The position numbers and the translations under genes are program-made. Shown one piece after another: positions 45,166 to 56,060 of a DNA stretch of 64,000 nucleotides. The stretch is from the NCBI GenBank assembly GCA_003152875.1, contig PMBF01000076.1, forward strand, positions 180,604-244,603, read 5' to 3'. Under the pieces are notes generated by a model. It worked only from the letters and a program-made list of their open reading frames with translations, was not told the origin of the DNA and made no database searches. Source of the DNA: Ignavibacteriota bacterium (GTDB lineage: Bacteria; Bacteroidota; Ignavibacteria; UBA10030; UBA6906). The number at the start of each line of letters is the position of its first letter. The first letter of the stretch is position 1.

Positions 45166-46863
45166 TCAGATGATGATTCGTTCCCGGTGTTCACCAAACA
45201 CTTCGCGCATCGTGTTGCAGATCTCCCCCACGCTGGCATAGGCCCGGACGGCGGCAAGAATTGCCTGCATGACATTCTCCTCCCCGGCGGCGGCAGTCTT
45301 CAGCGCGGCCAGACTCTCCGTGACTGCCGAGTTATCACGTTCTGCCCGGACCTTCCGCAGGGCTGCGATCTGATCGTCCTGCGTTTTCCGGTCGACTCTC
45401 AACAGGCCGCCGGGTTTTTCTTCCTTGACCTGATACCTGTTCACGCCGACAACAATCCGTTCCCCCGCTTCGACCTCCCGGCAGTAGCGGTATGCCGCCT
45501 TCTGGATTTCGGCCTGCACGAAGCCCGATTCGATGGCATCGATCATTCCTCCCATCCCATCGATGGTCTCGATGTACCGGACGGCCTCCTCCTCGATCCG
45601 GTCCGTCAGCGCTTCCAGGTAGAACGAGCCGGCGAGGGGGTCCACCGTGTTCCCGACGCCGCTTTCGTGGGCAATGATCTGCTGGGTGCGGAGCGCGATG
45701 CGGACGGATTCCTCTGTGGGCAGCGCGAGCGCTTCGTCGCGCGAGTTGGTATGGAGCGACTGCGTCCCGCCCAGTACCGCCGCAAGGGCCTGGATGGTCA
45801 CCCGGACGATGTTGTTGTCGACCTGCTGCGCCGTGAGGGTGGAACCGGCCGTCTGGGCATGGAACCGCAGCATCAGCGATTTGTCGTTTTTTGCCCCGAA
45901 CCGCTCTTTCATGATGCGCGCCCAGAGGCGCCGCGCGGCTCTGTATTTCGCCACCTCTTCGAGCAGATCGTTGTGGGCATTAAAGAAGAATGAGAGGCGC
46001 CCGGCAAAGGAGTCGACGTCCAGCCCCGCCCGCACCGCCGCACCCACATATTCGATGCCGTTCGCCAGCGTGAAGCCCACCTCCTGCGCGGCAGTCGACC
46101 CCGCCTCGCGGATGTGATAGCCGGAGATCGAGATCGTGTTCCATTTCGGCAGCTCCCGCGCACAGTATTCGAAGATATTCGTGATCAGCCTCATTGAAGG
46201 CTTCGGCGGGTAGATGTAGGTGCCGCGGGCGATATACTCCTTCAGGATGTCGTTCTGGACGGTGCCGCTGAGCAGCCCGCGCTCGACGCCCTGTTTCTCC
46301 CCCACAGCGATGTACATTGCCAGCAGCACTGGTGCCGGAGCATTGATCGTCATGGAGGTGGATACCCTGTCGAGGGGGATACCGGCGAACAACACTTCCA
46401 TGTCCGCCAGTGTGTCGATCGCCACGCCCACCTTTCCCACCTCCCCGTCGGCCAGGGGCGCGTCGCTGTCGAGCCCGATTTGGGTCGGAAGGTCAAAGGC
46501 AACCGAAAGACCCATCTGACCCTGCTCGAGCAGGAATCGATACCTCCGGTTGGATTCGCGCGCGGTGCCGAAGCCCGCATACTGGCGCATCGTCCAGAAC
46601 CGACCCCGGTACATGTTTGGCTGGATCCCGCGGGTGAATGGATACTGTCCGGGAAAACCCAGGCGCCCAGTCTCGTGCTTGCGGTCCACGTCGGCCCCGG
46701 TATAGAGCGGATTCACGGGATCGGACGAGGCTGTGGTGAGCGCCTCCTTCCGTTCCGGGGTCTTTTCAATCGTCTTCCGGTAGACGTCCTCGTACCACCG
46801 GACGAACGCCTTCCGCACATCATCGGGAAGCGATGGGGGAAGGGCAGGATCTTCGTCTTGCAT
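45166..46863 (-). CDS. Methylmalonyl-CoA mutase catalytic (large) subunit without a fused B12-binding domain (split-type MCM).
   Basis: [41 protein letters not shown]; it is about 565 aa and ends before the B12 domain. Confidence 0.8.
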
Positions 46864-46931
46864 GGAGCTCTCGCTGATTAACGTGCCAGAGACTTCGAGT
46901 GAGATCAGGCGGGCGTGCACCGTTGAGGGAA

Positions 46932-47273
46932 TCAGGGGCTTGACGCTATGACGAGCATCACCTGCCCTTTGGCTACCTGAGTACCCACCGCTACCGCCAC
47001 ACTCTTCACGGTGCCATCAACCGGTGAGAGGACATCGTTCTGCATTTTCATGGCCTCAAGGGTGACCAGCGGATCGCCCTTGCAGACCCTCTGGCCCGGG
47101 CGCACACTCACCCGCAGGATCATCCCCGGAATGACACAGGCAACGCTTCCGGGATCGGGCTGTGACCAGGGCTTCCGGCGCAGGAATTTGCCGGTAAGGA
47201 GTGTTTCGTACGTGGTACCCTGCACCGTCAGCTTCTGGTACCTGGGATGCTCAGATGGCATGATCGTTCCCAT
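46932..47273 (-). CDS. Biotin carboxyl carrier / biotinyl-domain protein.
   Basis: EAMKMQN biotinylation motif in a lipoyl-like beta-sandwich. Confidence 0.75.
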
Positions 47274-47341
47274 TCACTCTTGAAGGCGGGGCCGCCGGAT
47301 ACTCCCTGCCTGGACAGGACGCGCCCCCGGGCCGCATCCAC

Positions 47342-48886
47342 TCAGAAAGGGGGGATTCCATGCTTCTTCTTCGGGCGCGATTCGGACTTGTTCGTGGAAA
47401 CCTGAATGGCATGAACAAGGAATTTTCTTGTGTCGGACGGTCCGATCACCGCGTCGATGTGGCCGCTCGCGGCGGCGACATAGGGATTGGCGAATTTCTC
47501 GCCGTACTCCGCTACCTTCTGTTTCCGTGTGGCCGCCGGATCCGCTGCGGCCGCGATTTCGTTTCTGAAGATGATGTTGGCTGCCCCTTCCGGGCCCATG
47601 ACTGCGATTTCCGCCGTCGGCCAGGCAAAGACGAAGTCCGCTCCAAGGTGGCGCGAGCACATGGCAATGTAGCCGCCGCCGTACGCCTTGCGCAGGATCA
47701 CGGTGATTTTCGGCACGGTCGCCTCGCTGTACGCGTAGAGAATCTTGGCCCCGTGCCTGATGACTCCCGCATGCTCCTGGTCGATCCCGGGCAAATATCC
47801 GGGCAGGTCAACGAGCGTCACCAGCGGAATATTAAAGGCATCGCAAAATCGTATGAACCTGGCGGCCTTGTCCGACGAATCCACATCGAGCACTCCTGCA
47901 AGGACAAGCGGCTGGTTGCCGACGACTCCCACCGTTTCTCCGTCGAGTCGCGCGAACCCGACGACAACATTCGGCGCCCAGCTCTTGTGCACCTCGAAGA
48001 AATCGGAGTTGTCACTGACGGCGCGGATGATATCGCGGATGTCGTATGGTTTCGACGGCTCCGGCGGGATGATTTTCTCGATGTCGAACCTGGGCTTGGG
48101 GGCAGTAGGCGGATATCTGTCGGGACGGCGCCCATTGTTCCATGGGATATAGGAGAGCAGCTGCTTGATCTGATGAAAGCATTCCAGCTCATTCGAGGCG
48201 ATGAAGTGCGCGTTGCCGGTAATCTCCGCCTGGACTCTGGCACCGCCGAGGTCCTCCATCGAGACCTCTTCTCCAAGGACGGTTTTGATCACCTCGGGCC
48301 CGGTGATGAACATCTTGGAGATCTTATCGACCACAAACACAAAGTCCGTCAATGCGGGCGAATAGACCGCCCCCCCGGCACAGGGACCCAGAATCACCGA
48401 CAGCTGAGGGATGATCCCCGAGGCCATGGTGTTCCGGTAGAAGATTTCGCCATAGCCGGCTAGCGAGTCCACTCCTTCCTGGATCCGGGCCCCTCCGGAA
48501 TCATTGATCCCGATCAGCGGCATCCCCATCTTCACGGCATGATCCATGATCTTCGTGATTTTCCGGGCATGCATCAGGCCCAGCGAGCCCCCGGCCACGG
48601 TGAAGTCCTGCGCATAGATGCACACGGGACGGTCAATGATCGTGCCGGTGCCTGTGATGACACCATCTCCGGGAAGAGACTTCGACTCCATGTCGAAATC
48701 ACGGCATTTGTGCTCGACAAACAGATCATATTCATGGAAGGAATGCGCATCGAGGAGTGCGGTGATCCGGTCCCTGGCGGTAAGCTTTCCCATCGCCGTC
48801 TGCTTTTCGATCGCCTTCGTGCCCCCCCCGCCCAGAAGTTTGTTCTTCCGGCGGAAGAAATCGACGTGTTTGCTTGTGGGTGCCAC
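47342..48886 (-). CDS. Acyl-CoA carboxyltransferase subunit (methylmalonyl-CoA decarboxylase alpha / propionyl-CoA carboxylase beta / transcarboxylase 12S family).
   Basis: Two crotonase-like carboxyltransferase halves; GGGG and GGARIQEG motifs. Confidence 0.85.
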   Translation of the reverse strand: MAPTSKHVDFFRRKNKLLGGGGTKAIEKQTAMGKLTARDRITALLDAHSFHEYDLFVEHKCRDFDMESKSLPGDGVITGTGTIIDRPVCIYAQDFTVAGGSLGLMHARKITKIMDHAVKMGMPLIGINDSGGARIQEGVDSLAGYGEIFYRNTMASGIIPQLSVILGPCAGGAVYSPALTDFVFVVDKISKMFITGPEVIKTVLGEEVSMEDLGGARVQAEITGNAHFIASNELECFHQIKQLLSYIPWNNGRRPDRYPPTAPKPRFDIEKIIPPEPSKPYDIRDIIRAVSDNSDFFEVHKSWAPNVVVGFARLDGETVGVVGNQPLVLAGVLDVDSSDKAARFIRFCDAFNIPLVTLVDLPGYLPGIDQEHAGVIRHGAKILYAYSEATVPKITVILRKAYGGGYIAMCSRHLGADFVFAWPTAEIAVMGPEGAANIIFRNEIAAAADPAATRKQKVAEYGEKFANPYVAAASGHIDAVIGPSDTRKFLVHAIQVSTNKSESRPKKKHGIPPF

Positions 48887-49201: not shown

Positions 49202-50131
49202 TCACGTCTTGAGGGCCGGGCGGGGTTCCTTGTTCCCGAAGAGCGAACGGAGGGCTTCCTGAAGTGAAGGGAAGCGAAACCGGAAGCCGTTCCGGATCAG
49301 AGCAGAGGGCGTGACGCGCTGGCTCGCCAGGATCATCACTGCCATTTCCCCCAGCAGTCCGCGGAGGACAAAAGCGGGAACCGGGAGAAGCGAAGGCCGG
49401 TGAAGCGCACTCCCCAGCGCCCGCGAAAACTCACGCATGGTTACGCTCTCAGGCGCCACAAGATTGACGGGTCCCCGCATTGTACCGTCCCGCAGAGAGA
49501 AGAGCGCCGCGTCGACGGCATCATCCAAGTGTATCCATGGAACGTACTGCGCGCCGGACCCCGGTGTTCCCCCGAGAAATACCCGGAAGAGCAGGGCCAT
49601 TGTATCGAGCGCTCCCCCCGGCCGCCCGAGGACCACACCCATGCGGGGGATGACCACACGAATACCCAGGTCCACGGCTTTCAGCGCAGCGGCTTCCCAC
49701 GCCAGACAGACCTCGGCCAGAAACCCCCTGCCTGCCTCGTGCTGTTCGGTTACTATCTCCGTGCCGGTATCACCGTAGAATCCCACCGCCGAAATATTCA
49801 GGAGCACTGGGGGAGGGTGTGCGGCCGTACGCATGGCTTCCACGATCGCGCCGGTGGAAGCGGTGCGGCTCAGAAGGAGACGTTCCCTCCGCGCCCGCGT
49901 CCACCTCCCGCCTGCAAGCGACTCTCCGGCCAGGTTGATAACGGCATCTGATCTCTCGAATACCCGTGGGCCGGATGCCAGGCTGTCCCACCCCGAGTAC
50001 GTGATTCCTTGTTCTGCACGATACTGCCCGGGATGCCTGGTGAGCACCGCCACCTCATGGCCTTCATCAAGGAGCCTCCGCATGAAGTGCCGGCCGACGA
50101 ATCCCGTCCCACCGCAGAGCACGACTCTCAT
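49202..50131 (-). CDS. TIGR01777-family NAD-binding epimerase-like protein (YfcH/SDR39U1, with a DUF1731 C-terminus).
   Basis: N-terminal GGTGFVG and the C-terminal ...YVPWIHLDD motif. Confidence 0.75.
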   Translation of the reverse strand: MRVVLCGGTGFVGRHFMRRLLDEGHEVAVLTRHPGQYRAEQGITYSGWDSLASGPRVFERSDAVINLAGESLAGGRWTRARRERLLLSRTASTGAIVEAMRTAAHPPPVLLNISAVGFYGDTGTEIVTEQHEAGRGFLAEVCLAWEAAALKAVDLGIRVVIPRMGVVLGRPGGALDTMALLFRVFLGGTPGSGAQYVPWIHLDDAVDAALFSLRDGTMRGPVNLVAPESVTMREFSRALGSALHRPSLLPVPAFVLRGLLGEMAVMILASQRVTPSALIRNGFRFRFPSLQEALRSLFGNKEPRPALKT

Positions 50132-50312
50132 CTCAACTTACCTCCATGGAAAAGCTTCGCTCCATCCCGCCGGATAGAGCAACAGGGACCGGTGTCTGAA
50201 GTCAGGTGCAAGGCAAGAAAGGTTTCGGGAAATTGCGAAGCGAGGGAGCGCAGGGAATACCTGAAGGAGCACTTGCAGGATGGCGGGTTCCATCGGGAAG
50301 GCCTTCCGGCTT

Positions 50313-51260
50313 TCAATTCGCAGGAGCGGCACGGACACTTGTCCACTGATCGAGTGTATCTACCAGATCTTTCGCGGTCGTGGCAATGAGGTCGAAGGAC
50401 TTCTGGCTGTACCCCTTGTCCAGGGCGGCACGGCCTCCGAGGACCGCGATTGCGCCCTGGTCCCTGGCTGCGCGGGCGATTTCCCTCAGGTGGGAACCGG
50501 TCAGGGCGGAATGCCCGGACTGCGTCACCGAGATGCAGACCGCCGCCGGCTTCGTTTCTCTGATCGAGCGGACAATGGCGGATACGGGGGTGCGGGCTCC
50601 GAGAAAATTGGTCTGCCACCCCTCGGCTTCCAGCAGATAGGAGGTGCACCGGAGACCCATCTCATGCAGCTCCTCCCCAGCGCATGCCAGGACGACAAGA
50701 CGACCGCTGCCCGGCTTGACATGGATCTGCGACTGGAGCCTGGCGAGCGCATCAAGGGTTTCGTACGAAGCCCGGTGCTCCTGATCGACGCCCACTTCCC
50801 CCCTCTCCCATCGTTCGCCGATCTCCCTCATTCCCTCCCGGATAATGTCATCGTAGATCTGCCAGAGAGGGATCTTGTGTTCGTAGAGATACGACAGGAA
50901 ACCGGCCAGCTTCCCTTCATCGGCTGACAGCGCACGCTCAATGAATCCCTGGACGAGTGTGTCCATGTCCCGCTCCAGGACTGCCATCTGGAGGCGTGCG
51001 GCACGTTCATCATGTGCCGGCATCTGCAGGACGCCGAGCGGTTCCAGGTTGTTCTTTTCGGCGAACTCGACGACGTACTTGATCACAAACCTCCTGTGTC
51101 CGCCAGGCGTTTTCTGGCACCTCAAGACACCCTCGTCGGCCCATCGCTTGACGGTTGTTTCCGTCACGTTGAAGAGCCTCGCCACGTCCGCCGTGGACAG
51201 GATGGTTCTTTGCATGACCGGCCTCACTTCGTCCGATTTGTACGATTTATGCGACTTCAT
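50313..51260 (-). CDS. MerR-family transcriptional regulator with a C-terminal cobalamin-binding domain (CarH/LitR-like B12- or light-responsive regulator). The start was trimmed to an internal Met.
   Basis: N-terminal MerR HTH (TADVARLFNVTETTVKRWADEGVL) and a Rossmann-like B12-binding domain with E-x-H-x-x-G (EELHEMG). Confidence 0.65.
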   Translation of the reverse strand: MKSHKSYKSDEVRPVMQRTILSTADVARLFNVTETTVKRWADEGVLRCQKTPGGHRRFVIKYVVEFAEKNNLEPLGVLQMPAHDERAARLQMAVLERDMDTLVQGFIERALSADEGKLAGFLSYLYEHKIPLWQIYDDIIREGMREIGERWERGEVGVDQEHRASYETLDALARLQSQIHVKPGSGRLVVLACAGEELHEMGLRCTSYLLEAEGWQTNFLGARTPVSAIVRSIRETKPAAVCISVTQSGHSALTGSHLREIARAARDQGAIAVLGGRAALDKGYSQKSFDLIATTAKDLVDTLDQWTSVRAAPAN

Positions 51261-51445
51261 CGTGAGGCAAGACGTGTTTTTCCCTCCCCACCTTTTTCGT
51301 CCCCCCCGACAAGCGCCGGCTGCGCGCCTCCTGGCGGACGAACGCTCTTTATCTAACACCATGGAAAGTCACGCCGGTTCCAGAGACGGAACGCGAGGGA
51401 TAGGGACAAGACCGGCTGCCGGCACCCGTGGCCGGCAGACCGGGA

Positions 51446-53644
51446 TCAGGTCTTTTCGAGGAAGAGGGCTCCCAGGGGAGGAAGGGTCAGGTTGAGCGAA
51501 TGGCTCCGCGCGTGTGCCGGCACGGGGTCTGATTGGATATGGCCGGCATTGCCCATGTTGCCCCCGCCATAGAGCGCTGCATCGGTGTTGAGCAGTTCCT
51601 TGTAGCCACCCTGTTGCCGGACGCCGATGCGGTATCCGGGCCGCGGAACCGGGGTGAAATTGTAGACGCAGATCAAGGAATGACCTTTACCGGACTTACG
51701 TTCGAAGGCAATCACGCAAGCTGCGCGGTCCTCGAAATCGATCCATTCAAAGCCGCTGTAACTAAAGTCGATGCCATGGAGTGCCGGCCTGGACCGGTAG
51801 AGGGCATTGAGGTCCATGACGCAGCGTTTCAGCCCCCGATGGGGTTCGAAGTTGAGGAGGTGCCAGTCCAGGCTCTGTTCGTGGTTCCATTCGTTCCACT
51901 GGCCGAAGTCGATGCCCATGAAGAGGTGCTTCTTCCCCGGGAATCCATACATCAGCGCGAGCAGCAATCTCAGGTTGGCAAACTTCTGCCAGTCGTCGCC
52001 GGGCATCCGGCCGAGCATCGACCCCTTGCCGTGCACGACCTCGTCATGGGAAAACGGAAGGATGAACCGTTCGGTGAACGCATAGAGCAGCGCAAACGTC
52101 AGGTTGTTCTGGTGGTATGTCCGGTAGACGGGATCGAGCGAGAAGTACTCCAGCATGTCGTGCATCCACCCCATGTTCCATTTGAGGTCGAATCCGAGTC
52201 CGCCCTTGTCGAGCGCGTGCGTGACGCCGGGCCACGCTGTGGATTCCTCAGCGAGCATGACGACGCCGGGGTGGTACTCGTGCACGACGCTGTTGAGGTA
52301 TTTCACAAACTCGATCGCCTCGAGGTTTTCGCGGCCTCCATACTGGTTGGGGATCCACTCCCCTGCCTTGCGGGAGTAGTCGAGGTACAACATCGATGCA
52401 ACCGCATCGATCCTGATGCCGTCCACATGGTAGCGGTCCAGCCAGTAGAGCGCGTTGCTGATCAGGAAGTTTTTCACCTCGTTCCGCCCGTAGTTGAAGA
52501 TGAACGTACCCCAGTCCTGATGCTCGCCTTTGCGCGGGTCGGCATGCTCGTACAGGTGCGTCCCGTCAAATAGTCCCAGGGCATGCGCATCTTTCGGGAA
52601 GTGTGCCGGGACCCAGTCCAGAAGAACGCCGATGTTGTGTTCGTGGAGGTGGTTCACCAGGAACATGAAGTCCTGGGGGGAGCCGAAGCGGCTGGAGGGC
52701 GCATAGTACCCCGTGACCTGGTAACCCCATGAAGCGTCGAACGGATGTTCCATCACGGGCAGGAATTCAACGTGGGTGTAACCCATCGAAGTCACGTACT
52801 CGGCAAGTTGGACAGCGGTCTCGCGGTACGTGAGCCAGCGCGAATCCTCGCCGCGCCGCCATGATCCGAGATGCACCTCGTAGACCGCGAGCGGTCTTTC
52901 CTGTGACGTATCGGAGCGCCGCTGATCCATCCAGGGCCCGTCATGCCATTCGAAACCCCCGAGGAAATTGACTTTCGAGGCGGTTCTCGGCCTGACCTCC
53001 ATCTCGAAGCCGTAGGGGTCGGTCTTGTCTTCATACCTTCCGTTCTGGCCCTTCACCTCGAACTTATACAGCTCCCCCTCGTTCATGCCCGGGATGAAGA
53101 TCTCCCAGACACCGGAGGAGCCGAGCATGCGCATGGCATGGTACCGGCGGTCCCATCTGTTGAAGTCCCCGATGACGCTCACGCTGCGAGCCGAGGGAGC
53201 CCACACGGCAAACTGCACCCCGCCGACCCCATTCACAATGGAATGATGTGCACCGAGCTTCTCGTAGATCTGGTGGTGATTCCCGCCATTGAAGAGGTAG
53301 AGGTCGTATTCGGTGAGCGTTGGAAGGAATGAATAGGAGTCGTGGAAGAGCGCCGAGGACCCGTCGGGGTGGGCCTTCTTCAGCCAGTAGGCAAATACCT
53401 CCTGATGCCCCGGGAATACCGCCTCAAAGAAGCCCTCCCGGTGAATGAGCTCCATCGGGTGCTCTGCGCGGGTTGAATCCTCCACCACCCAGGCGGCGGA
53501 CGCATCAGGCAGGTAGGCCCTCACGGCGACAACCGGTTCGCCTCCGGGGACATGCACCAGATGGGCGCCAAGCACGGCGAACGGGTCGTGGTGATCCGCG
53601 TGAAGGATCTTTTCGATGTCGTTTTCGGGAACAGTGCTCATCAT
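51446..53644 (-). CDS. glgB: 1,4-alpha-glucan (glycogen) branching enzyme GlgB (GH13_9).
   Basis: CBM48 and alpha-amylase catalytic regions; conserved GH13 motifs (DWVPAHF, GIRIDAV, EES/EHD regions); 732 aa. Confidence 0.9.
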   Translation of the reverse strand: MMSTVPENDIEKILHADHHDPFAVLGAHLVHVPGGEPVVAVRAYLPDASAAWVVEDSTRAEHPMELIHREGFFEAVFPGHQEVFAYWLKKAHPDGSSALFHDSYSFLPTLTEYDLYLFNGGNHHQIYEKLGAHHSIVNGVGGVQFAVWAPSARSVSVIGDFNRWDRRYHAMRMLGSSGVWEIFIPGMNEGELYKFEVKGQNGRYEDKTDPYGFEMEVRPRTASKVNFLGGFEWHDGPWMDQRRSDTSQERPLAVYEVHLGSWRRGEDSRWLTYRETAVQLAEYVTSMGYTHVEFLPVMEHPFDASWGYQVTGYYAPSSRFGSPQDFMFLVNHLHEHNIGVLLDWVPAHFPKDAHALGLFDGTHLYEHADPRKGEHQDWGTFIFNYGRNEVKNFLISNALYWLDRYHVDGIRIDAVASMLYLDYSRKAGEWIPNQYGGRENLEAIEFVKYLNSVVHEYHPGVVMLAEESTAWPGVTHALDKGGLGFDLKWNMGWMHDMLEYFSLDPVYRTYHQNNLTFALLYAFTERFILPFSHDEVVHGKGSMLGRMPGDDWQKFANLRLLLALMYGFPGKKHLFMGIDFGQWNEWNHEQSLDWHLLNFEPHRGLKRCVMDLNALYRSRPALHGIDFSYSGFEWIDFEDRAACVIAFERKSGKGHSLICVYNFTPVPRPGYRIGVRQQGGYKELLNTDAALYGGGNMGNAGHIQSDPVPAHARSHSLNLTLPPLGALFLEKT

Positions 53645-55045: not shown

Positions 55046-55657
55046 TTAGAACTTCGTACCGCTCTGGGAAACGAACTTCTTGATCTTCTTTTCTCCGAGC
55101 CAGGCCTTGCGGTTATTCTCAAGGTTGACCAGCTCCATGTTCACCTGGTAGTACTTCACCTGATCACCGCCTTCCTGGTCGACGATGGTGGTGATGTCAC
55201 CCCTGAGCATGAAATCGGCTCCCGCCTCCTTCTGGAATTTTTTCATCGATTCGGGGGAGGCGTTTTCCTGCTGGTCTGCCCTCTCATCCCGCACCTCCTG
55301 CCGCTCTTCCTTGTTGGCGACGAAGTTCACCCGGCCTGAGTTGATGAGCTCGCGCTCGAGATTCTTGATGAAGGTAAGTGTCTGGATGTGCTCGCTCGAT
55401 CTGTTCTTGACGGTGCCCACGATCACGTCAGGCGGGCGTGTGTTTGCGCCCTTGAATTCTCCGAGCCAGGGACGCGCGAGGACGTCTCTGATCATCTCTT
55501 CCGCCACGAGACGCGAATCGGTATCGTTCCAATCGCCGCTGAGGTCGATGGTCTTATCCACGTCGACGCGTGAGACCGATTTGGTGGCCCCGCAACCCGA
55601 CAGAAGAACCATTGCGGTGATTGCGCCCGCTACGGCAAGACAGCGCGCTGTTACCAC
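55046..55657 (-). CDS. LpoB-like lipoprotein (COG3417, penicillin-binding-protein activator family), about 203 aa. The Pro/Arg-rich N-terminal 128 aa of the track ORF were rejected.
   Basis: Lipobox LLSGC; VIVGTVKNRSSEHI...LINSGRVNFV and ADFMLRGDITTI...YYQVNMELVNL resemble the E. coli LpoB core; a GGAGG sits upstream of a GTG start. Confidence 0.45.
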   Translation of the reverse strand: MVTARCLAVAGAITAMVLLSGCGATKSVSRVDVDKTIDLSGDWNDTDSRLVAEEMIRDVLARPWLGEFKGANTRPPDVIVGTVKNRSSEHIQTLTFIKNLERELINSGRVNFVANKEERQEVRDERADQQENASPESMKKFQKEAGADFMLRGDITTIVDQEGGDQVKYYQVNMELVNLENNRKAWLGEKKIKKFVSQSGTKF

Positions 55658-55740
55658 GGTACCTCCGATGGCTGGTGATAAGTGGGTAATTGCATGGTGA
55701 AGATACGAAAAAGCTGTTGAAGGTTCAAGAACCGGGCACG

Positions 55741-56060
55741 GAGGATAACCCTTTGGAGGAATACGCTTTGGAGGATAACACTTTGGAGGATTGCCGTTTG
55801 GACGATCACCCCCTGGCGGATCGCACTTCTTTGGATCAACCTTGCGTGGATCGCTTATCGGCGGGCGCCTGGTCGGAGGGCGATCGGCCATCCGATGTTT
55901 CGTTCCCTTGAGGCCGGCCATCCGGAACACCCTTCTCCGGAATCCTGGTTTCCGGTGCCTCGTTTCCACCGGTCCGGACCTCCGGTCCATCATTCCCCTT
56001 GAAGGGGTCTCCCGGTGGTTCGGTCGCGGGTACCCGGACATCCGGCCCTTCGGGTCCAGC
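55741..56060. repeat. Tandem repeat with 15-bp periodicity. Four crisp units, GAGGA(T/A)(A/T)NC(N)CTTTG, are at 55741-55800, degenerating through the 3' end of rmuC. The 15-bp period equals a pentapeptide period in the RmuC C-terminal tail.
   Basis: Read directly. The translated minus-strand tail ...RIPEK GVPDG RPQGN ETSDG RSPSD QAPAD shows a 5-aa period. The crisp DNA units lie just 3' of the rmuC stop. Confidence 0.55.

Follow-up and report, generated by a model that had tools for sequence, protein, structure and literature searches.

The stretch of DNA analysed here (the window: 64,000 nucleotides of contig PMBF01000076.1 from an Ignavibacteriota bacterium) carries on its minus strand a gene whose 300-residue product is probably a light-sensing repressor dependent on adenosylcobalamin (AdoCbl). 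Judged from its sequence, this regulator falls in the CtMerR branch of the CarH/LitR family, and it would act at a predicted operator of 9-bp direct repeats lying just ahead of its own start codon. The next gene on the same strand encodes an oxidoreductase of the TIGR01777 family; that the regulator controls this gene is a claim for which the arguments on either side appear evenly balanced. The regulator gene and its parts are the following.

50313–51215, minus strand: coding sequence of the regulator, 300 aa, stop codon included (from the open reading frame, Pfam domains, 300-aa public gene calls and alignment starts).
51222–51225, minus strand: Shine-Dalgarno-like GAGG, 6 nt before the ATG at 51215 (read directly from the sequence).
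51054–51206, minus strand: winged helix-turn-helix (HTH) DNA-binding domain, residues 4–54, BldC/excisionase-like (Pfam, NCBIfam and PDB comparison).
50766–50942, minus strand: four-helix-bundle subdomain (B12-binding_2), residues 92–150 (Pfam, alignment and helices 102–163 of the AlphaFold2 (AF2) model).
50427–50699, minus strand: Rossmann-type B12-binding subdomain, residues 173–263 (Pfam, motifs and the top Foldseek matches, 8jbs/8jbt).

An earlier reading, made from the letters of the window alone (the sequence-only reading), had proposed a CarH/LitR-like B12 photoreceptor-type regulator, and this proposal holds. Indeed, the Pfam check that it suggested finds HTH_17 (35.4 bits), MerR (30.7 bits), B12-binding_2 (35.3 bits) and B12-binding (45 bits), all above their gathering scores. 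CarH homologues are defined by the cap motif Wx9EH and the B12 motif ExHx2Gx41SxV/Tx22-27GG (PMC8156234), and the regulator carries both. The first, W136-x9-E146-H147, lies together with G133xxW136 in the four-helix bundle (nt 50775–50810), and the second reads E182xH184xxG187-x41-S229xT231-x28-G260G261, with a final spacer one residue beyond the published 22–27. The ExHxxG that had been noticed in the cobalamin-binding domain is present as E182-L-H184-E-M-G187 (nt 50655–50672), of which H184 is the predicted lower axial ligand of B12. Residues W136, E146, H147, H184, G187, S229, G260 and G261 are invariant across 25 aligned homologues (51–66% identity), and G206xxxP210 is also present and invariant in the family.

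The closest characterised protein is CtMerR from Chloracidobacterium thermophilum (WP_157850694; PDB 8JBS/8JBT; Yu et al., FEBS J 2024), an AdoCbl-bound tetramer in the dark that becomes monomeric in the light (PMC11796333). The AF2 model of the regulator (mean pLDDT 80.2) has 8jbs as its best Foldseek match (template-modelling score 0.87–0.90, target-normalised; root-mean-square deviation 2.1 A; 31% identity), followed by CarH of Thermus thermophilus (TtCarH), and its B12-domain part superposes on AdoCbl-bound CtMerR at 2.1 A. When the family profile is compared with the PDB, CtMerR (8jbs/8jbt) is matched over residues 5–285 (E 2.3e-58), whereas TtCarH is matched via its B12 domain alone (2.6e-13); pairwise, the regulator and the C. 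thermophilum B homologue share 35% identity (E 2e-49). The CtMerR SignatureFinder elements GxxW (GERW), EH and GxxxP (GARTP) are found in the regulator. The B12-binding fold of the C-terminal domain, on which the sequence-only reading had staked its case, is thus recovered by both Pfam and AF2/Foldseek. More largely, E-values among the regulator homologues reach 1e-195 to 1e-94, far above chance, and the family profile, at E <=1e-30, picks up about 290 clusters (50% identity level), mostly of full-length proteins of about 300 aa. From these observed domains, motifs, homology and fold match, we infer cofactor binding, a light response and repression.

The B12 module might instead be degenerate or B12-independent, as in CarA and in class II/III LitR, the protein being a constitutive or otherwise-signalled repressor. 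The GxxH element, which reads GxxxH in the window protein, points that way, as do two His-less paralogues that share its HTH, have Wx9ER, are devoid of ExHxxG and lie beside UV/light-stress genes. One of them, P0166 (L065 8001–8879) from a Polyangiaceae metagenome-assembled genome (MAG), is divergent from an Epimerase + DUF1731 gene, which is followed by an SRPBCC gene. The other, P0175 (L067 7001–7936), precedes genes for Dps, UvdE, an SRPBCC protein and an NmrA/TspO fusion and is divergent from an amine oxidase-DUF1365-CMAS-DUF1295 cluster. Both paralogues seem to represent a branch that works without B12, in the manner of CarA or class II LitR. For the window protein itself such a degeneration is highly improbable, since the cofactor-contacting signature residues W136, E146, H147, H184, G187, S229, G206xxxP210 and G260G261 are all present and family-invariant and the modelled B12 domain fits AdoCbl-bound CtMerR. 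An intact, AdoCbl-binding module is therefore preferred.

The start of the regulator deserves a correction. The mechanical open reading frame extends from 50313 to 51362 on the minus strand, and its end at 50313, as given by the sequence-only reading, is borne out. The start placed at 51260 (315 aa) is not: the true start is very probably the ATG at 51215, because the identical database protein P0001 is 300 aa long, the 300-aa start is used by public gene calls on four contigs, 25 of 25 aligned homologues begin with MQ(K/R)TILST, and the GAGG precedes this ATG. Furthermore, the 45 nt corresponding to the 15 supernumerary codons hold the predicted operator.

The DNA-binding domain appears, from sequence comparison, closer to BldC of Streptomyces than to TtCarH. 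Residues 4–43 are nearly invariant in the 25 homologues, and residues 1–64 alone, compared with the PDB, match CtMerR (E 1.9e-13) and BldC (6ama/6amk, 3e-6) far better than TtCarH (0.3), although Foldseek still aligns full-length TtCarH with the regulator model. The NCBIfam BldC subfamily model gives 53.9 bits for a cut-off of 77. BldC protomers each occupy one 9-bp direct repeat, AATTxxxx(C), and stack head-to-tail, Arg30 contacting a conserved C-G pair (PMC5859096); R24 of the regulator (in TVKRW) aligns with the Arg of BldC TVTRW, which is Arg30 by count from the numbering of that paper. The label 'MerR HTH' given by the sequence-only reading stands in part: the Pfam MerR model does score above its cut-off, barely (30.7 versus 28.2 bits), HTH_17 scores higher for the N-terminus, and the domain appears BldC/excisionase-like rather than classical MerR. 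In the AF2 model, the HTH is followed by a linker and then by the B12 module, and the coiled-coil dimerisation helix arrangement of classical MerR proteins is absent.

The family HTH may also occur in multiple copies. Two representative proteins, P0303 (279 aa) and P0307 (417 aa), match it in 4 and 7 separate stretches (profile positions 6–51 and 6–56); each seems to string several BldC-like domains in tandem along a single chain, an arrangement that would suit binding to tandem direct repeats.

51229–51255, minus strand: predicted operator, three tandem 9-bp direct repeats, GTCGCATAA ATCGTACAA ATCGGACGA (22.6 bits with a position weight matrix, PWM).

In the BldC register this site reads AAGTCGCAT AAATCGTAC AAATCGGAC; it ends 13 nt ahead of the start codon, and a fourth, weaker repeat occupies 51256–51264. 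A scan of GTDB genomes yielded 62 regulator loci, nearly all from Ignavibacteriota, Ignavibacteria, "Bacteroidota bacterium", Chlorobi-like and Kapaibacterium MAGs (one is labelled "uncultured bacterium" only), and a recurring tandem repeat is visible in the 120 nt upstream of the regulator at these loci. The 27-nt PWM, made of three units A[A/T]CGnnnA[A/T], converged on 44 of the 62 loci, the site beginning 31–71 nt, mostly 31–48 nt, before the regulator start. Scanning both strands of all loci (1.88 Mb) at >=18 bits gave 58 matches, every one of which is located directly upstream of a regulator or of the crtI-led cluster ahead of it, always on the strand of the regulator.

Trained without the window on the 43 other loci, the PWM still places its best window site at 51229–51255 with 22.6 bits. 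The runner-up, at 17.1, is that very site displaced by one repeat, and the next unrelated site on either strand of the 64 kb reaches 6.7; in 100 simulated 64-kb windows the maxima were 10.2 +/- 2.5 on average and 17.8 at the highest. The window holds exactly one copy of the operator. A search that uses no seed leads to the same period: the spacing between identical 3-mers in the interval -80 to -1 of 61 loci shows a sharp peak at 9 nt (0.058 versus a baseline of about 0.017), again one at 18 nt, and none at 10 or 11 nt.

The position of the site is that expected for a repressor. At 24 of 43 loci, the 50 nt upstream of the operator contain a TTGACn-17/18-TATATT-like promoter whose -10 element usually ends 2–3 nt before the first repeat, so that a bound protein would cover the transcription start. 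The sequence-only reading had directed attention to MerR-type inverted repeats in promoters with a 19-bp spacer; scanning both intergenic regions retrieved no sigma-70-like promoter at all and, as inverted repeats, unrelated hairpins only. The identity of a classical MerR activator was thus considered and rejected, as neither a palindrome nor a promoter with a 19–20 bp spacer was found in 50132–50312 or 51216–51445 and as the HTH precedes a linker and a B12 module.

Similar repeats, AACGCTCAA AGCGGTCAA / AACGTGCAA ATCGGTCAA, are found with lower scores (10–18 bits) upstream of the regulator genes of C. thermophilum and of a Blastocatellia MAG, both of which are divergent from a polyprenyl synthase gene. 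They make up one of the two islands that are still conserved where the rest of the intergenic region has diverged, and the candidate site upstream of CtMerR is AACGCTCAAAGCGGTCAAGTCAG. As a matching operator these repeats are only suggestive.

A conserved island, CCCCCCAAGCGT...TGAA..CTCCCCCCGGAGT...TCCAA.CCT.CAA, is likewise common to C. thermophilum and the Blastocatellia MAG, at L063 7670–7740 and L064 7640–7710, in both cases intergenic, upstream of CtMerR-type genes and within a spacer that has otherwise diverged. No Rfam family matches it; a regulatory element or a small RNA may be present there.

Downstream of the regulator and upstream of it, the window contains the following features.

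49202–50131, minus strand: TIGR01777/YfcH-family atypical short-chain dehydrogenase/reductase (SDR), Epimerase + DUF1731, 309 aa (NCBIfam, Pfam and conserved position).
50132–50312, minus strand: spacer of 181 bp between the regulator and TIGR01777 genes (sequence; promoter, PWM and terminator scans).
51446–53644, minus strand: glgB, 1,4-alpha-glucan branching enzyme, upstream neighbour of the regulator (Pfam, synteny).
47342–48886, minus strand: methylmalonyl-CoA carboxyltransferase (gene order).
46932–47273, minus strand: biotin carrier, BCCP (gene order).
45166–46920, minus strand: methylmalonyl-CoA mutase catalytic subunit (TIGR00641, 813 bits).

The order on the minus strand is therefore glgB, regulator, TIGR01777 and then the methylmalonyl-CoA genes, a methylmalonyl-CoA epimerase gene and UppP following that of the mutase subunit. 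The local layout described by the sequence-only reading is confirmed in all its parts: the TIGR01777 gene is co-oriented with the regulator, the distance of 181 bp is exact, and the regulator comes after glgB on the same strand. The product of the downstream gene scores 327.1 bits with TIGR01777 (cut-off 207.35), 73.9 bits with Epimerase and 70.3 bits with DUF1731 (Pfam), and 279.4 bits with the ThyD equivalog model, below the cut-off of 400.

In the close clade (at least 49% identity between regulators), the order glgB, regulator, variable insert, TIGR01777 and methylmalonyl-CoA genes is conserved. In 35 of 43 loci, the TIGR01777 gene is found downstream of the regulator and on its strand; of the remaining eight, five sit on truncated contigs, and in three the entire 10-kb flank is taken up by crt clusters. 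The pairing of regulator and TIGR01777, the conservation of which the sequence-only reading had left to be checked, is thus well conserved, and it recurs beside the B12-motif-less paralogue of the Polyangiaceae genome. At about 20 loci, a cluster of genes on the same strand is inserted between the two (confirmed by Pfam). It encodes a phytoene synthase (crtB), a synthase of polyprenyl/geranylgeranyl diphosphate (GGPP) type (crtE), a DNA photolyase (phr), a CrtZ-like hydroxylase, an SRPBCC protein, two lycopene-cyclase halves and a second SRPBCC protein, with TIGR01777 as the last gene and often crtI directly upstream of the regulator. Some loci are reduced to regulator, photolyase and TIGR01777. 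The layout of the window, with regulator and TIGR01777 only, is found in 12 loci, where the spacer measures 16–50 bp in six and 110–234 bp in the others; the short spacers of these six relatives argue for co-transcription. The window is a reduced version of the regulator-led cluster of its relatives.

Between the regulator and TIGR01777 genes, L015 and L062 carry an open reading frame (about 190 aa, mechanical) of glyoxalase/VOC type, which is found within the crt cluster in L010 and L034.

Among distant homologues (31–40% identity), the regulator is followed by crtI-crtB-crtE-photolyase, by genes for an outer-membrane barrel, a TonB-dependent receptor, SRPBCC and a YbgA-like protein or, in L044, by a photolyase gene and, further on, SRPBCC-TIGR01777. 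The loci L048 and L050–L053, of the distant Ignavibacteria-type clade, have no carotenoid genes; there the regulator precedes a small outer-membrane beta-barrel (DUF481-like), a CarboxypepD_reg/Plug TonB-dependent receptor, or both, and these genes may provide light-controlled outer-membrane or uptake functions, possibly for corrinoids.

From these elements the following mechanism can be proposed. In the dark, AdoCbl would be bound with H184 as lower ligand and W136/E146/H147 as cap, and the protein would form a tetramer via its B12 domains. Its BldC-like winged helices would occupy the three 9-bp repeats (51229–51255) head-to-tail, at or just downstream of the promoter, and block transcription. 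Green, blue or UV light would photolyse the Co-C bond, the tetramer would dissociate and the operon would be derepressed. Here this operon would be reduced to the regulator and the TIGR01777 oxidoreductase, to which relatives add carotenoid-synthesis and photolyase genes. The TIGR01777 protein would most likely be an enzyme that protects against light stress and whose substrate is hydrophobic or lies in the membrane, as it comes last in a photoreceptor-led carotenoid/photolyase cluster and usually adjoins an SRPBCC protein of lipid-binding type. In Anabaena, high light induces the family member ThyD (All2390) 5–8 fold, and the ThyD mutant, when exposed to such light, bleaches and ceases to grow (PMC11711299).

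The light- or B12-controlled expression of the TIGR01777 gene that had been suggested remains plausible by co-transcription and by position in the regulon, and the idea loses ground in that this gene has no operator of its own; any light control must hence run via co-transcription with the regulator. The non-phototroph context that was remarked on at the same time is not surprising: CarH/LitR regulators characteristically occur in non-phototrophs (PMC8156234, PMC6739363), and the clusters of the relatives are ordinary carotenoid/photolyase ones.

Several observations weigh against this account. Every functional step of the regulator is carried over from homologues, and the GxxH of CtMerR reads GxxxH here (G180-E-E-L-H184). 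The PWM was seeded by eye on the same upstream regions that it describes, which the leave-out test and the unseeded spacing test offset. No recognisable promoter of sigma-70 or Bacteroidota type adjoins the window operator, the best candidate being a weak TTGCCT-15-TAAATC, and the closest relatives, L001–L005, have weak or no operator matches. As regards TIGR01777, no operator precedes it in the window or at any locus (the best PWM scores in the spacers are negative), the 181-bp spacer could hold an independent promoter, and the pair belongs to a larger syntenic block that extends from glgB to the methylmalonyl-CoA genes, so that its conservation may partly be plain synteny.

These last points suggest another explanation, according to which the regulator is as described and TIGR01777 lies outside its control: the neighbourhood would be inherited synteny, TIGR01777 would have its own promoter in the spacer, and the real targets, for example crt/photolyase genes, would be elsewhere in the genome. 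The syntenic block of the clade, from glgB through regulator and TIGR01777 to the methylmalonyl-CoA carboxyltransferase gene, fits this explanation, as does the fact that most loci of the distant clade have no TIGR01777 nearby. It accounts less well for the spacers of 16–50 bp, for crt/phr inserts, which share the strand, invariably separate the regulator from TIGR01777 and leave SRPBCC-TIGR01777 at the end, and for L044, where TIGR01777 also ends a regulator-led chain and glgB is not detected. The paralogous regulator that divergently adjoins DUF1731 and SRPBCC genes in the Polyangiaceae genome, the high-light induction of ThyD (PMC11711299) and the spacer of the window (50132–50312), where no convincing minus-strand terminator was found, also speak against it. 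It is thus rather unlikely, and control of TIGR01777 by co-transcription with the regulator is retained as the working reading.

The methylmalonyl-CoA genes invite a further alternative, namely a dark sensor of B12 availability that tunes the AdoCbl-dependent mutase pathway (45166–48886). Carboxyltransferase, BCCP, mutase catalytic subunit and epimerase genes indeed follow on the same strand, the linkage recurs in relatives, and CarH-type repressors need AdoCbl to bind DNA and hence respond to B12. However, the Wx9EH cap is a CarH photoreceptor signature that the B12 enzyme MetH reportedly lacks (PMC8156234), the homologue that comes nearest among those characterised is photolytic (PMC11796333), and the logic would be inverted, since a holo-repressor would shut the genes off when B12 is present. 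Moreover, a gap of 315 bp in which no operator was found separates TIGR01777 from the carboxyltransferase gene, and in relatives the genes that consistently accompany the regulator are those for carotenoids and photolyase. This alternative has very little to recommend it, which leaves the light-sensing repressor as the preferred reading.

Other features of the window complete this picture. glgB is a syntenic neighbour outside the regulator system; a hairpin follows its stop codon (51416–51438). Between glgB and the operator, a GC-rich inverted repeat (51296–51342) has 21-nt arms with 71% complementarity and a 5-nt loop, followed by a plus-strand T-rich stretch. The regulator is the sole real B12-motif open reading frame of the window. 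The mutase gene corresponds to the catalytic N-terminal part alone (584-aa mechanical open reading frame, 565 aa in public calls); no separate gene for the B12-binding subunit of this split mutase was found in the operon or in the 64-kb window, the one other motif match being spurious. A Pfam search of the large open reading frames of the window detected no crt, photolyase or photosynthesis genes, and Rfam detected one tRNA and no cobalamin riboswitch in the window and nothing in L063–L065. Glycosidases sorted by the type IX secretion system (T9SS) fit a chemoheterotroph of the Bacteroidota/Ignavibacteriota group. A gene for an LpoB-like lipoprotein (55046–56041, minus strand) has a mechanical open reading frame of 331 aa with a long Pro/Arg-rich N-terminal extension and is 203 aa long in public calls; its true start is probably internal.

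In the literature searched, nothing was found that joins CarH with BldC or with Ignavibacteria, nor anything relevant to DUF1731/TIGR01777 with light or carotenoids, ThyD having been reached via its NCBIfam name. Within that literature, three elements appear to be new, namely the operator of 9-bp direct repeats that is predicted here, the connection with BldC-type binding and the place of TIGR01777 (with SRPBCC) in a light regulon. Tentatively, and at slightly less than even odds, these elements may amount to a B12 photoreceptor of distinct design. Its winged helix, of a BldC type that normally oligomerises on DNA unaided, would here be governed by an AdoCbl tetramer that light breaks up, and illumination would turn off the head-to-tail, filament-like occupation of the 9-bp repeats. 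The conserved terminal cargo, TIGR01777 (ThyD/GC1/YfcH/SDR39U1), usually accompanied by SRPBCC, would be a light-stress enzyme widely shared by non-phototrophs, cyanobacteria and plastids.

The analysis bears on several questions. A concrete operator and regulon are now predicted for the CtMerR branch, the DNA target of which the 2024 structural paper left open, and a candidate site is also available upstream of CtMerR, a protein already purified. The association of CarH-type light switching with the BldC binding mode implies a different operator geometry, which is relevant to the design of optogenetic tools. The high-light phenotype of ThyD is consistent with placing TIGR01777/YfcH/SDR39U1 in a predicted light-stress regulon of bacteria, and this placement restricts the range of substrates to be considered. 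The annotation of the regulator start codon is also corrected.

Among known systems, sequence and fold place the regulator with CtMerR, a subtype published in 2024. Both proteins are homologous over their full length and share an HTH_17-type N-terminus, a four-helix bundle, a Rossmann B12 domain and the GxxW, Wx9EH and GxxxP elements, and neither has a His after the Trp. They differ in host (Ignavibacteriota-type here, Acidobacteriota for CtMerR) and in the GxxH element. Furthermore, the CtMerR paper gives no DNA site or regulon, whereas an operator of three 9-bp repeats and a crt/phr/TIGR01777 regulon are predicted here.

Class I CarH proteins (Thermus thermophilus, Myxococcus xanthus, Bacillus megaterium; PDB 5C8A–5C8F) share with the regulator the two-module architecture and both defining motifs. 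The predicted behaviour is also that of CarH, a dark AdoCbl tetramer on tandem direct repeats at the promoter that light dissociates, with carotenoid/photolyase targets in non-phototrophs. However, the DNA-binding domain has no detectable sequence similarity to that of CarH (E 0.3), and the CarH equivalog model gives 58.9 bits, far below its cut-off of 400. The predicted operator has a period of 9 bp with A[A/T]CGnnnA[A/T] units, instead of three or four 11-bp repeats nAnnTnnACAn. In addition, the His next to the Trp of TtCarH is absent (E137 here), so that the bis-His light state of TtCarH is not expected.

With BldC (PDB 6AMA/6AMK; PMC5859096), the likeness concerns DNA recognition. The winged-HTH segment LLTPAEVATMFRVDPKTVTRWAKAGKLTSIRTLGGHRRY can be aligned with ILSTADVARLFNVTETTVKRWADEGVLRCQKTPGGHRRF, the base-contacting Arg included. 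BldC binds 9-bp direct repeats in tandem, each AT-rich at its start, and binding of this kind is predicted here; the window repeat AAATCGGAC is a single base away from AATTCGGAC, the repeat modelled in the structure of BldC with DNA. In contrast, BldC is a single domain of 68 residues that oligomerises via its winged HTH alone, whereas here the domain belongs to a 300-aa protein and is fused to a B12 photosensory oligomerisation module; the repeats of the regulator also have an invariant CG core, unlike the BldC consensus. Finally, the TIGR01777 family comprises ThyD/All2390, Slr1223, GC1/SDR39U1 and YfcH, and the window gene is a clear member (327 bits). It differs from ThyD in scoring below the equivalog cut-off and in belonging to an organism without thylakoids, yet its position in a predicted light regulon matches the induction of ThyD by high light and the need for it under these conditions.

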